DNA of 32,000 bases from assembly GCA_008080745.1 (NCBI GenBank), contig SHMX01000001.1, forward strand, positions 480,001 through 512,000, given 5' to 3'. Below, piece by piece: positions 3,665 to 8,109 of this stretch (within the stretch, counting starts at the first letter, position 1; each line of letters begins with the position of its first letter). The position numbers were made by a program, and so were the translations under genes. This DNA comes from Candidatus Thorarchaeota archaeon. Lineage in GTDB: Archaea > Asgardarchaeota > Thorarchaeia > Thorarchaeales > Thorarchaeaceae. The notes under the pieces were generated by a model, which made no database searches, had not been told where the DNA came from, and was given only the letters and a program-made list of their open reading frames with translations.

Positions 3665-4501
3665 GTGAGTCAAATGCCAGAAGAAACAGTTTCTGCAAAA
3701 CGTCCTGAAACCCCTGATAGAAAACAGTACCATATCGAGGTCGAAAAAGGAGCAGTTGCGCCAACAGTACTATTACCGGGAGATCCACAACGGGTTAGAA
3801 AAATCAGTTCGAAATGGGATTCATTCGAGGAAGTGGCAAACCATAGGCAGTATGTCACTCATACTGGAAAATACAAGGGAGCATCCATTTCTGCTTGCTC
3901 AACAGGCATTGGTGGACCAGGGGCTGCCATCGCTTTGGAAGAATTGGCAAATGTAGGAGTTAGAAACTTCATTCGGGTTGGCTCTTGTGCCACACTAAAA
4001 GATGATATTGATATTGGAGATCTTATCATCTCCACTGGCGCTGTACGTCTTGAGGGAACAAGTAAACAGTATATTAGACCGGAATATCCAGCTATTGCAT
4101 CATATGAGGTCGTTCTTGCCCTAATCGAGGCAGCGGAAACTATAGGAATTACGTATCACTTGGGATTATCAGCTTCCACCGACTCCTTCTATCTTGGTCA
4201 ATCAAGGCCCGGATATGGAGGATATGAGCAACAATGGAGCAAGCAGCTTATTGACGACCTGACAAAAGCAAATGTATACAATTTCGAGATGGAAGCTGCT
4301 ACTATATTCACTCTGTCGAATATCTATGACTTCCGTTCTGGTGCAGTCTGTGCAGTGTATGCAAATCGACCAAGAGATGAATTTGCAGTAAAGGGGGAGA
4401 ATGATGTTATCAAGTGTGGGAACGAGGCTGTACGAATACTTGCAGATATGGACGAGGAGAAGGAGAGTAGGAAGAAGAGATATTGGTCAAGAACAATGTA
4501 G
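3665..4501 (+). CDS. udp: Uridine phosphorylase (PNP/UDP family 1)
   Basis: QYHI, VLLPGDPQRV, STGIGGPGAAIALEEL, IRVGSCA, STDSFYLGQSR, NFEMEAA. GTG start. Confidence 0.93.
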   Translation: MSQMPEETVSAKRPETPDRKQYHIEVEKGAVAPTVLLPGDPQRVRKISSKWDSFEEVANHRQYVTHTGKYKGASISACSTGIGGPGAAIALEELANVGVRNFIRVGSCATLKDDIDIGDLIISTGAVRLEGTSKQYIRPEYPAIASYEVVLALIEAAETIGITYHLGLSASTDSFYLGQSRPGYGGYEQQWSKQLIDDLTKANVYNFEMEAATIFTLSNIYDFRSGAVCAVYANRPRDEFAVKGENDVIKCGNEAVRILADMDEEKESRKKRYWSRTM

Positions 4502-4527
4502 GTCCTTTTCCAGTATTCTACTTTTTT

Positions 4528-6354
4528 CTATTTCCCAACGTAGTAATATTCACCCTCGGCCTTCTGTTGTTGATCGAGTCTGGAACCAGTCTTGTTAACA
4601 CGAGGGCGTCCTGTCTGGGGATCCCTACGGAAAGTGACTCCCATTTGCTTAAGGAATGCATTCATACCCCTTCTTAGAGTGGTTACACTGTGGGCAACAC
4701 CCTCTTTCCCTGGAACACCATCAAATACGACCATACTATCACTCAAATAATCCGCCATCAGAATGCTATGCTCTACAACGAATGCGGTCTTCAGTCTAAA
4801 CTGCATCATATGGCGAATAGCACGAGAGCTAGCTAAACGTTGTTCAATATCAAGAAAGGCAGATGGTTCATCAAAAAGATAAATGTCCGCATCTTGTGCA
4901 AGACAGGCTGCTATAGCAGAACGTTGGAGTTCTCCACCACTTAAATCTCCAACACCGTGATCTAATAGATGTTCCAATTCCAATTTTCGAATCACTGATG
5001 TCCTGAAATCAGATGTATCCGCAGTAGAACCCCCGGTTTCTCTTAGTAGCATTCGTACAGTTCCAGGATAGGAGGCATCAATGTATTGAGGCTTATATGC
5101 TACTTTCAACTCCAAACCAGTGACAGTCTTCTTGGGTACCTCACCCTCATCGGGTTCAAGAATGCCTGCAAGCATTTTAACAAAAGTTGTTTTTCCAATG
5201 CCATTAGGACCTAAGATGCCAACTATTTGTCCTTTAGCGACCCTTCCACCTTTTACAGTCAGTTCAAAATCCTCGAATTTCTTCGTCATATCACCATATT
5301 CGAGTAATGTTTCACCATGTGCAAATTCACTGTCTTCTGCAGTCATACCTTTGAATGAGATAGAAGTATCACGAAATCGCATGTTCTCATCAGGAATATA
5401 TCCATCAAGAAAGATATTTACTCCCACACGTGTGCCATGCGGATGAGAAACAATTCCATACACACCGGGATCGCCATAAAACATACATACGAGATCGGAA
5501 ACATAATCGAGTATCGAAAGGTCATGCTCAACAATAACAACAGTCTTTCCGATTTCTGAAAGTTGTCGGATAGCCTTCCCAACACGTAATCTCTCACGAA
5601 CGTCAAGATATGCGGTTGGTTCGTCAAAAAAGTAGATATCTCCATCTCGAACAATTGCAGCAGTAATTGCAGTACGTTGTAACTCCCCGCCGCTAAGGAA
5701 TTTGATTGGTCGATCCCAGATGCTCTCTAGGTTCATATCGTCTCTAATTTCTTTCAGACGTCCTGAAGAATCAGCACCCTCCAATAAATCACTGATAGGT
5801 TTGTCAGCAATTGACGGGACCTTTGGCAGGTCTGTAATATTCTGGGGTTTCAAAATGGGAGTGATATCACCCGCTTGAATCCGTTCGAAGAAGGGTTGGA
5901 GTTCTGAACCACGATACTGGAGAATGATTTCTTCCCAATCCGGAGGGTCATCATATCTACCAAGATTCGGTTTCAATTCACCAGCAAGAATCCTCAGAGC
6001 AGTGGTTTTTCCCACACCATTCGGACCGATTAATCCTAATACTCTGCCTTCCTTGGGAATCGGCATTCTGAAAAGCTTGAACCCGTTAGCACTATAACGA
6101 TGGCTCGTATCGACTTCGAGTTGTTCTGGAAGGTTTACAATAGTGATTGCATTGTAAGGACATTTCTTCACGCATATTGCTTCGCCTGAGCACAAAGACT
6201 CGATAATAGTGGGTGGCTTGTCAGGACCATCAGTAAATACGACGGTCTCATCACCTGTTCGAACCCTTGGACAGAATCGTCTGCATTCATGTGTACAATC
6301 TTTTGGTCTACAACGAAATTTATCAAGTACAGCAATACGCATTCTAATAGCCAC
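4528..6354 (-). CDS. abce1: ABCE1/RLI ribosome-recycling ATPase
   Basis: N-terminal Fe-S domain, YSANGFKL, two NBDs (GPNGVGKTT, GPNGIGKTT, LSGGELQR twice, DEPT/DEPS), C-terminal FRRDPQTGRPRVNK..S..D..QK..G.YY. Confidence 0.98.
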   Translation of the reverse strand: MAIRMRIAVLDKFRCRPKDCTHECRRFCPRVRTGDETVVFTDGPDKPPTIIESLCSGEAICVKKCPYNAITIVNLPEQLEVDTSHRYSANGFKLFRMPIPKEGRVLGLIGPNGVGKTTALRILAGELKPNLGRYDDPPDWEEIILQYRGSELQPFFERIQAGDITPILKPQNITDLPKVPSIADKPISDLLEGADSSGRLKEIRDDMNLESIWDRPIKFLSGGELQRTAITAAIVRDGDIYFFDEPTAYLDVRERLRVGKAIRQLSEIGKTVVIVEHDLSILDYVSDLVCMFYGDPGVYGIVSHPHGTRVGVNIFLDGYIPDENMRFRDTSISFKGMTAEDSEFAHGETLLEYGDMTKKFEDFELTVKGGRVAKGQIVGILGPNGIGKTTFVKMLAGILEPDEGEVPKKTVTGLELKVAYKPQYIDASYPGTVRMLLRETGGSTADTSDFRTSVIRKLELEHLLDHGVGDLSGGELQRSAIAACLAQDADIYLFDEPSAFLDIEQRLASSRAIRHMMQFRLKTAFVVEHSILMADYLSDSMVVFDGVPGKEGVAHSVTTLRRGMNAFLKQMGVTFRRDPQTGRPRVNKTGSRLDQQQKAEGEYYYVGK

Positions 6355-6857: not shown

Positions 6858-7280
6858 ATGAACGTGCCTCCTTTCGAATGTAATCATGATGGGTCATGCG
6901 AAGAAGTCAGATTATGCTGCACGGATACAGAAATGACCCTGACTCGGGCAGATGCAGAGCGCATCAATGCACTAGGTTATGATAGGGAGGAGTACCTGGT
7001 GAAGAGTGAAGATGGATTCTGTCAGCTCCGAAACATCAATGGAAATTGCTATTTCTACGATCAGAAGACCAAATTATGTAAAATATATGACCACAGGCCA
7101 GAAGGATGCCGATATTACCCAATAGTCTATAATGTCAGAAAAAAGAAATGCGTTGTGGATTATGACTGTCCATCACGGAAAACAGTAACGTCACAAGACC
7201 TCAGGAAAGTATGTAAGAATGTTCGAGAGCTGGTCGAAAAATTAATGAGGGAGGCAGAATATCGTGATGGACCGTGCTGA
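6858..7280 (+). CDS. YkgJ/UPF0153 family cysteine-cluster protein (putative Zn/Fe-S binding)
   Basis: C..C..CC N-terminus, then C.F.D....C.IY..RP..CR.YP motif. Confidence 0.9.
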   Translation: MNVPPFECNHDGSCEEVRLCCTDTEMTLTRADAERINALGYDREEYLVKSEDGFCQLRNINGNCYFYDQKTKLCKIYDHRPEGCRYYPIVYNVRKKKCVVDYDCPSRKTVTSQDLRKVCKNVRELVEKLMREAEYRDGPC

Positions 7281-8109
7281 TTTGCATACACACTCGAATT
7301 TCTCCGACGGCAAATATTCGCCACAAAAGATTGTTGAATTAGCGAAGAGTCTGAATCTTGGAGCTGTTGCTCTAACAGACCATGATACACTCAAGGGAAT
7401 TCCTGATTTCCTTTCTGCAAACAAAATCTCGGACATCATGTTAATTCCAGGCGTCGAAATTAGTACAGAATTCCAAGAAACAGAATTTCATATACTCGGT
7501 TATTTCCCACCCCAAGATTCTAAAAAATTTGAACAAGCGCTAAAAAAACTGGAATTCTCAAGAACGCAGAGATTCCCAAAGATGTGTAAAAAACTCGCTG
7601 AGTTGGGTATTAGTATATCAGAAGAGGAGATTGAGGAAGAACTGAAGAACGTCACTAGTCCCGGCCGTCCTCACTTAGCACGAATCTTAGTGAAAAAAGG
7701 AATTGTAAATAATACCCAAGATGCCTTCGATAAATTTCTTCGAAAAGGTGGACCAGCATATGTAAAGAAGGAACGTATGAATAGTCTTGATGCTATTCAT
7801 TTACTCCGTGATGAACATGCGGTTCCAGTGATAGCACATCCACTCCTCACACATATTGAGAATCTGGATGCCATATTGATAAAATTTGAAGAGGAGGGTC
7901 TATTGGGAGTAGAGATCGAATATGATTACGGAAAATCAAAATCTTGGAGAAACAATCAATCATTGAAATCGCTTGTGAAGAAGCTTGGTCTTATCATGAC
8001 TGGTGGCAGCGACACGCACGGAGACGATTCGCATAGTCCATTGGGTGGTGTAACCGTTTCGATAGATGTTGCCAGAGATCTTGAACGTTTACATACCGAG
8101 GTCTGCTGA
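7264..8109 (+). CDS. PHP-domain metal-dependent phosphoesterase (TrpH/YciV-like)
   Basis: DLHTHSNFSDG, ALTDHDT, GVEIS, FHILGY, PGRPHLA, IAHP, TGGSDTHG. Confidence 0.93.
   Translation: MMDRADLHTHSNFSDGKYSPQKIVELAKSLNLGAVALTDHDTLKGIPDFLSANKISDIMLIPGVEISTEFQETEFHILGYFPPQDSKKFEQALKKLEFSRTQRFPKMCKKLAELGISISEEEIEEELKNVTSPGRPHLARILVKKGIVNNTQDAFDKFLRKGGPAYVKKERMNSLDAIHLLRDEHAVPVIAHPLLTHIENLDAILIKFEEEGLLGVEIEYDYGKSKSWRNNQSLKSLVKKLGLIMTGGSDTHGDDSHSPLGGVTVSIDVARDLERLHTEVC

Follow-up and report, generated by a model that had tools for sequence, protein, structure and literature searches.

Glutamate replaces the sixth iron-sulfur cysteine of ABCE1 in most Thorarchaeaceae, and the same position has changed repeatedly among Asgard archaea

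Can the essential ribosome-recycling ATPase ABCE1 retain its ferredoxin-like iron-sulfur cluster once a cysteine that holds it has been replaced by glutamate? The question is raised by a Candidatus Thorarchaeota genome (GCA_008080745.1), in which we analyzed positions 480,001 to 512,000 of contig SHMX01000001.1, a stretch of 32,000 nt that we call the window. It carries the gene for ABCE1 (RLI/Rli1) at 6342-4528 on the minus strand (minus-strand positions are written from high to low). ABCE1 binds two [4Fe-4S] clusters through eight Cys residues, of which at least seven are needed for viability (PMC13255074), and in the Thorarchaeal protein the sixth is Glu. We consider it likely, with a probability of about three in four, that this is a functional, single-copy ribosome-recycling ABCE1 whose ferredoxin-like cluster would be held by three cysteines (Cys 4, 5, and 7), Cys-6 having been given up.

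The gene was recognized from the list of open reading frames (ORFs), Pfam, and phmmer and encodes 604 aa from the ATG at 6342, the start common to homologues (MRIAVLD...). An in-frame GTG at 6354 (ORF 6354-4528, minus) adds 4 residues to give 608 aa; residues are numbered here from the ATG, and the C55, E58, and C61 of an earlier, sequence-only reading of this DNA were counted from the GTG. At the site of the substitution the gene reads CSGEAICVKKCP. The second, ferredoxin-like motif, C51-S-G-E54-A-I-C57-V-K-K-C61-P, is encoded at 6192-6157 on the minus strand by TGC TCA GGC GAA GCA ATA TGC GTG AAG AAA TGT CCT (exact pattern match G000:C1:486133-486192), with Cys 5, 7, and 8 present and Cys-6 replaced by Glu54 (GAA, 6183-6181). 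A phmmer search against all PDB chains aligned residues 1-601 with residues 5-592 of Pyrococcus abyssi ABCE1 (3BK7/5LW7; E 7e-204), and human, yeast, and S. solfataricus ABCE1 aligned at E 1e-165 or better. Within these alignments "lcsgeaicvkkcp" falls without a gap on "sCtgCgiCvhkCp" of P. abyssi and "lCigCgiCikkCp" of human ABCE1, which places Glu54 at the middle Cys of CX2CX2C, that is, at Cys-6 of the eight, corresponding to C58 of yeast. The sequence and the PDB-chain alignment thus confirm the C-S-G-E-A-I-C motif and GAA codon reported in the sequence-only reading, and its statement that the other seven Cys are intact holds in the translation (C11, C16, C20, C24, C51, C57, and C61).

The remainder of the protein is that of an ordinary ABCE1. 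The Fe-S cluster domain, delimited by alignment to the FeS domain of solved ABCE1 structures, spans about residues 1-76 (6342-6115) and includes the intact first cysteine motif, C11-x4-C16-x3-C20-x3-C24-P (Cys 1-4; 6312-6268). Pfam assigned Fer4_RLI (PF04068; residues 5-36, 38.8 bits against a cut-off of 23) and two ABC_tran domains; Fer4 (PF00037) stayed above the E cut-off of 0.001, to which we attach no weight, the motif being very short. In motif scans of the translation both nucleotide-binding domains (NBDs) were complete: NBD1 has the Walker A motif GPNGVGKT (residues 106-113; 6027-6004), LSGG at 216, the Walker B-Glu stretch IYFFDE at 236-241, and the H-loop VEHD at 271, and NBD2 has GPNGIGKT (residues 378-385; 5211-5188), LSGG at 467, IYLFDE at 487-492, and VEHS at 523. 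With seven Cys the protein fails the eight-Cys rule (CX2CX2CX3CP) and passes all other sequence tests for ABCE1, and it is classed here as an ABCE1 with a variant cluster site, not as a new family. It also matches the pattern of [3Fe-4S]-type ferredoxins, CXX(non-Cys)XXC(X)nCP, through C51-x2-E54-x2-C57 and, by homology to ABCE1, C24-P as the remote ligand. No extra Cys was found in the first 76 residues when we looked there for a compensating one (a ligand swap, as in eukaryotes); in some relatives an extra Cys follows CP, both with and without Cys-6. The genome itself (3.16 Mb, 98% complete) contains one full-length ABCE1 match, and in a search of it for a second copy the remaining matches, at E of about 3e-14 or weaker, were ordinary ABC ATPases.

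Other genomes share the substitution. In a search of 5.8 billion proteins the closest ones bore the name Thorarchaeota ABCE1/RLI, and we scanned the first 140 residues of the 120 nearest 90%-identity clusters, taken from NCBI, JGI, ENA, and Logan assemblies. The motif is CSGE[AG]IC in 112 of these and CSGA[AG]MC in 6; Phe replaces Cys-5 in one (P0098), and the scanned residues of one other, which has a long N-terminal extension, yielded no motif. Cys 5, 7, and 8 are kept in 118/120, a set unbiased by any motif pattern. The P0098 cluster (Thorarchaeota ABCE1, 5 members, 86.8-kb JGI contig) combines Glu at Cys-6 with its Phe at Cys-5 (ELFSGEGICVKKCP) and would keep only two ligands for the ferredoxin-like cluster; a near-identical genome copy of it (L025) has Cys-5, and either a single-base error (TGC->TTC) or a real variant may hold.

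At the level of genomes, we examined 30 relatives, of which 28 have Glu or Ala at the position and two keep Cys. The sequence-only reading had named Cys in close relatives as the mark of an assembly artefact, and most relatives do not carry it; to its question whether E58 is clade-wide, the answer is that Glu is the norm in Thorarchaeaceae and recurs across Asgard archaea. Among species genomes of the same GTDB family, every sampled genus has Glu or Ala except g12 (CSGCGMC), with Ala in three groups, and the one sampled genome of the sister family has Cys. The Glu codons among 140 full-length Asgard genes are GAA in 36 and GAG in 45, a drift between codons under a fixed residue that suggests that selection keeps Glu. 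Among full-length sequences, Ala is accompanied by Met two residues downstream in 10/10 and Glu by Ile in 81/81, without exception in Thorarchaeaceae, a pairing that looks like packing compensation around a vacant corner. A tree of the ATPase body only, free of the Fe-S domain, placed the three Ala groups of Thorarchaeaceae apart, and approximately unbiased (AU) tests rejected uniting the Ala variants (p 0.006) or the Glu variants (p 9e-5) in one group, the p-values being indicative only because the groups were named after the first tree was seen. These results point to repeated switches between Glu and Ala within the family. Which way the changes ran, from Glu to Ala or from Ala to Glu, is uncertain, since g4 (Ala) and g12 (Cys) share a four-residue insert. 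This insert follows CPYN in L028 and L032 of g4 (CPYNQHGAVIKIINLP) and in L036 and L037 of g12 (CPYNHHGAVIKIINLP/CPYNHQGAVIKIINLP); in the ATPase-body tree g4 is nested in the Glu clade and g12 lies outside it, a conflict that could be explained by recombination of the Fe-S domain or by repeated loss of the insert.

How far does the loss of Cys-6 extend? For 27 Asgard families, the ABCE1 N terminus was read in one to several genomes each (family labels from NCBI; f numbers are our own handles). Position 6 is Glu in f7 (Jordarchaeales) and f13 (Atabeyarchaeum), Glu or Ser in part of f9 (Loki-type), Thr in f16 (Borrarchaeum) and f19 (Freyarchaeota), Val or Ile in part of f5 (Heimdallarchaeota AB_125 group), and Ala in f18. 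Asgard species genomes were also screened with a non-Cys DNA template, C-x-G-[codon not starting with T]-[AG]-[hydrophobic]-C-x-x-K-C-P-x7-N, which demands G at +2, A/G at +4, [KNRSHQ]-K before CP, and Asn seven residues after CP, and which misses ABCE1 genes with inserts (Thorarchaeal genera g4 and g12; family f4) or with other flanks (f22, f17, and f20). It matched 165 of 400 genomes (about 40%), and a reversed-pattern control over the Asgard species genomes gave no match. By family, the matches were 67/85 in f1, 25/31 in f5, 4/5 in f7, 51/135 in f9, 3/3 in f13, 5/5 in f16, and 6/6 in f19, with single genomes in f14, f24, and f18. The corresponding Cys (TGY) template matched 148/400 genomes, some of these matches being an unrelated ferredoxin, and none in f1, f7, f13, f16, or f19. 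Altogether, Asgard ABCE1 accepts Glu, Val, Ile, Thr, Ala, Ser, and Asn at position 6. A tree of 140 Asgard sequences and 10 outgroup representatives requires at least 8 switches between Cys and non-Cys and 14 state changes in all, with Glu in about four separate lineages (Thorarchaeaceae, the Jordarchaeales-labelled family, Atabeyarchaeia, and one large Loki-type genus). In none of the 118 Asgard sequences that lack Cys-6 has any of Cys 1-4 changed. A change from Gly to Ala next to the lost Cys was considered as a correlated change (67/118 versus 1/32 in raw counts) and rejected, there being only 5 independent pairs and no significance.

Several Asgard loci depart from this pattern in other ways. 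In one Loki-type genome a normal ABCE1 is accompanied by a second, very divergent ABCE1-like gene (L053, G054:C130:3680-4120; full match 3718-5556), which shows 38% identity along its whole length, has a long insert within the Fe-S domain, and retains the CLKCGICLNVCP motif intact. Two further Loki-type bins have two ABCE1 N termini each, one with Cys and one with Glu in G095 (C166 and C175) and both with Glu in G308 (C63 and C142); these may be mixed bins or true duplicates. In family f4, L041 and L042 (G039 and G050) have a three-residue insert, CSGEKSCGIC and CSGEKACGIC, with Glu after CSG and the Cys kept past the insert.

Outside the Asgard archaea, Cys-6 is rarely missing. From a search of 1.84 billion 50%-identity representatives we read the top 150, and 113 of these cover the N terminus. 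All eight Cys are present in 104 of these 113, and Cys-6 is kept in 110; the other three lack all eight. These three (P0165, P0204, and P0264) have no Fe-S Cys and show the pattern I/L-A-V-D-M-H-A/C-Y. Four others (P0167, P0182, P0183, and P0213) lack Cys-7 and Cys-2, and some of them also Cys-1 or Cys-3. A prokaryote-wide scan with the non-Cys template, one genome per species, yielded a sample of at least 120 matches. Among the 120 matches listed, 119 are ABCE1 genes, with Glu in 78, Val in 19, Thr in 9, Ala in 7, Ile in 3, and Ser in 3; Asp was not seen at position 6 in any of these 119. Asgard-type or "uncultured archaeon" labels are attached to 118 of them, and the only ABCE1 listed under another label belongs to a Geothermarchaeales metagenome-assembled genome (L210/L238, G400:C18:14583-14642; CTGSGICVKKCP, with Ser). 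The one listed match that is not ABCE1, L145 (CAYTSY010000120.1, uncultured Desulfobacteraceae bacterium), resembles ABCE1 only in the ABC ATPase domain, at 24% identity. In the phylum of the Geothermarchaeales genome (TACK-type), the non-Cys template found no match in 300 evenly drawn genomes, and the Cys template matched 169/301 genomes. It is therefore well supported that loss of Cys-6 would be rare outside the Asgard archaea, on a sample of one phylum plus representatives and not a census, the Euryarchaeal and DPANN phyla having been sampled only through the 50%-identity representatives.

How might such an ABCE1 work? ABCE1 is defined in function by ATP-dependent ribosome splitting jointly with aRF1/aPelota. 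The Fe-S domain has a mechanical part in recycling: closure of the ATP sites displaces it, after which it docks between h44, h5-h15, and uS12, using conserved basic residues that include the Lys of the ...KKCP stretch (PMC7196836). The domain thus serves as a rigid wedge, as established for ABCE1, and we hypothesize that the cluster would be needed to scaffold the fold, for which three Cys would be sufficient. The fourth ligand position would then have been abandoned in evolution and filled by Glu. Given that Cys 1-4 and Cys 5, 7, and 8 were kept long after Cys-6 was lost, the ferredoxin-like cluster is probably still bound. Tolerance of the loss would follow from Cys-6 being the one dispensable ligand in yeast, where cells with Rli1 C58A survive and show sensitivity to H2O2 and Cu, the mutant protein being believed to contain a [3Fe-4S]+ cluster (PMC3442406). 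In that paper and in PMC13255074, C58 is the only coordinating Cys reported to be dispensable in yeast. The statement of the sequence-only reading that loss of C58 is tolerated but reported to give a labile or [3Fe-4S] cluster holds. The yeast Cys-6 mutant itself reportedly originates from Barthelme et al. 2007, as cited in PMC3442406.

In ferredoxins, CXXCXXC...CP accompanies [4Fe-4S] and CXXA/GXXC...CP accompanies [3Fe-4S], and the CXXDXXC ferredoxin of Pyrococcus furiosus holds [4Fe-4S] anaerobically and [3Fe-4S] in air (PMC6237146). By analogy, the Thorarchaeal site may hold a [3Fe-4S] cluster with Glu capping the vacant corner, to which we give slightly less than an even chance, or, with an only slightly smaller chance, a [4Fe-4S] cluster with its unique iron on the Glu carboxylate, solvent, or a small thiol. 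The occurrence of Ala, Val, Ile, and Thr in sister lineages makes us lean, on balance, towards Glu not being obligatory as a ligand. The sequence-only reading had proposed a natural variant with a Glu-ligated or 3Fe cluster: the natural variant in a single-copy ABCE1 is borne out by the clade-wide Glu and the lone gene, the residues of the relatives argue against a required protein ligand, and the sequence cannot separate the two cluster types or decide between a capping and a ligating role for Glu.

Several considerations weigh against a three-Cys cluster at a dispensable site. The type of cluster is inferred purely from sequence. In the loci found with the template, the conservation of Cys 5, 7, and 8 is forced by the template itself. 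Glu lies three base changes away from TGY and yet is present in about four lineages, which is more suggestive of selection for a specific role. Glu is also strictly kept across about 20% protein divergence, which speaks for selection rather than for a dispensable site, and the invariable pairing of Ala with Met and of Glu with Ile in Thorarchaeaceae suggests that the residue is constrained.

The strongest alternative takes up these points: Glu54 would be a selected O-ligand of a complete [4Fe-4S] cluster (3 Cys + 1 Glu) with a site-differentiated iron and altered potential or lability, like Asp14 of P. furiosus ferredoxin. The separate Glu lineages and the retention of a residue three base changes from Cys through GAA/GAG turnover favor it, as do precedents for Asp (PMC6237146) and for Glu, which is able to ligate Fe-S clusters (PMC8053098). 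However, position 6 is filled elsewhere by Ala, Val, Ile, and Thr, none of them able to bind iron, and non-ligands recur in Thorarchaeaceae; Asp, the classical carboxylate ligand at this position, is absent from the 119 ABCE1 genes among the matches listed; and Glu at the second ligand position is not mentioned in the ferredoxin survey PMC6237146. We regard this alternative as unlikely, and it is more doubtful still that Glu at Cys-6 is a convergently selected carboxylate ligand of a 3Cys+1Glu [4Fe-4S] cluster with a labile iron through which recycling is tuned to redox or iron status. A further alternative is that the ferredoxin-like cluster has been lost, leaving only the ABCE1-type cluster (Cys 1, 2, 3, and 8) as a step towards the cysteine-free ABCE1 of some other archaea. 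The cysteine-free representatives indicate that cluster loss is possible in the family, yet Cys-4 is invariant (118/118) and 118 of the 120 nearest clusters have both Cys-5 and Cys-7, conservation that would not be expected of useless cysteines across lineages long without Cys-6, and we consider such a loss very improbable. Finally, a sequencing or assembly error, a pseudogene, or a redundant paralogue masked by a canonical copy, for none of which we found a favoring point, can be rejected with near certainty: GAA differs from TGY at all three bases, as the sequence-only reading had argued in excluding a single-base error, well over 100 independent assemblies, closed chromosomes (CP070761) among them, share this residue, the reading frame is uninterrupted and encodes a highly conserved protein, and the 98%-complete genome has no second ABCE1.

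The surroundings of the gene are ordinary, its neighbors being a PNP_UDP phosphorylase, a CxxCxxCC-domain protein, and a PHP-domain protein. The latter two are encoded upstream of ABCE1 on the opposite strand, a putative zinc- or iron-chelating CxxCxxCC protein (PF03692) at 6858-7280 (plus) and a PHP-domain phosphoesterase at 7264-8109 (plus), which overlaps it; no link between this pair and ABCE1 is evident. Beyond the window, the genome has one more match to Fer4_RLI (PF04068), at G000:C12:3373-3459 in an ORF of about 180 aa, as do most Asgard genomes. This ORF probably encodes a Tsr3-type rRNA aminocarboxypropyltransferase, an enzyme known to carry the Fer4_RLI domain.

The variation matters in several respects. 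A whole archaeal class and about 40% of the sampled Asgard species have dropped exactly the Cys found dispensable by mutagenesis in yeast, an independent natural confirmation of that genetic result. The natural series of Glu, Ala with Met, Val, Ile, Thr, Ser, Asn, and Cys, sometimes within one genus, bears on whether the cluster is a scaffold or a sensor, and the repeated appearance of Glu at three mutations from Cys, with no Asp seen, offers specific points that can be tested. Asgard ABCE1 genes without Cys-6 would be flagged in error by annotation or quality filters built on eight Cys. Should the ligand reading prove true, recycling in the archaeal lineage closest to eukaryotes would be tuned to redox or iron status, and a core translation factor would contain a Glu-ligated ferredoxin-type cluster; we know of no described example of the latter. 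The sequence-only reading had asked whether the substitution is already common and documented across archaea: it is common, within Asgard archaea only (165/400), and no description of natural Cys-6 variation in ABCE1 was found in a full-text literature search that covered few subscription journals, which is weak evidence of novelty.

Compared with known systems, the Thorarchaeal protein is closest to canonical ABCE1 (P. abyssi 3BK7, S. solfataricus 6TMF, yeast 5LL6, and human 6ZME), with which it is collinear over the full length (E 7e-204 to 1e-165) and shares the domain order (Fe-S domain, NBD1 with its HLH insertion, hinge, and NBD2) and both conserved nucleotide sites; it differs in having seven Cys instead of eight, with Glu at the middle Cys of CX2CX2C. 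The closest experimental analogue is yeast Rli1 C58A, in which the same ligand position is gone and the protein still supports life, although this is a laboratory Ala mutant in an aerobic eukaryote, whereas the Asgard change arose naturally and long ago, mostly introduces Glu, and has become fixed in whole clades. The closest chemical analogues are ferredoxins with a non-Cys residue at the same position (Ala or Gly in 3Fe ferredoxins; His, Asn, Thr, Tyr, Ser, or Phe in M. marinum; Asp in P. furiosus), but those proteins carry electrons, and the Thorarchaeal motif belongs to a translation factor, in a domain with a structural role. The cysteine-free ABCE1 proteins (P0165, P0204, and P0264) likewise break the rule of eight invariant cysteines; they have lost all eight, whereas the Asgard variant has lost exactly one and strictly kept the other seven, and their existence makes the loss of a single Cys less surprising.

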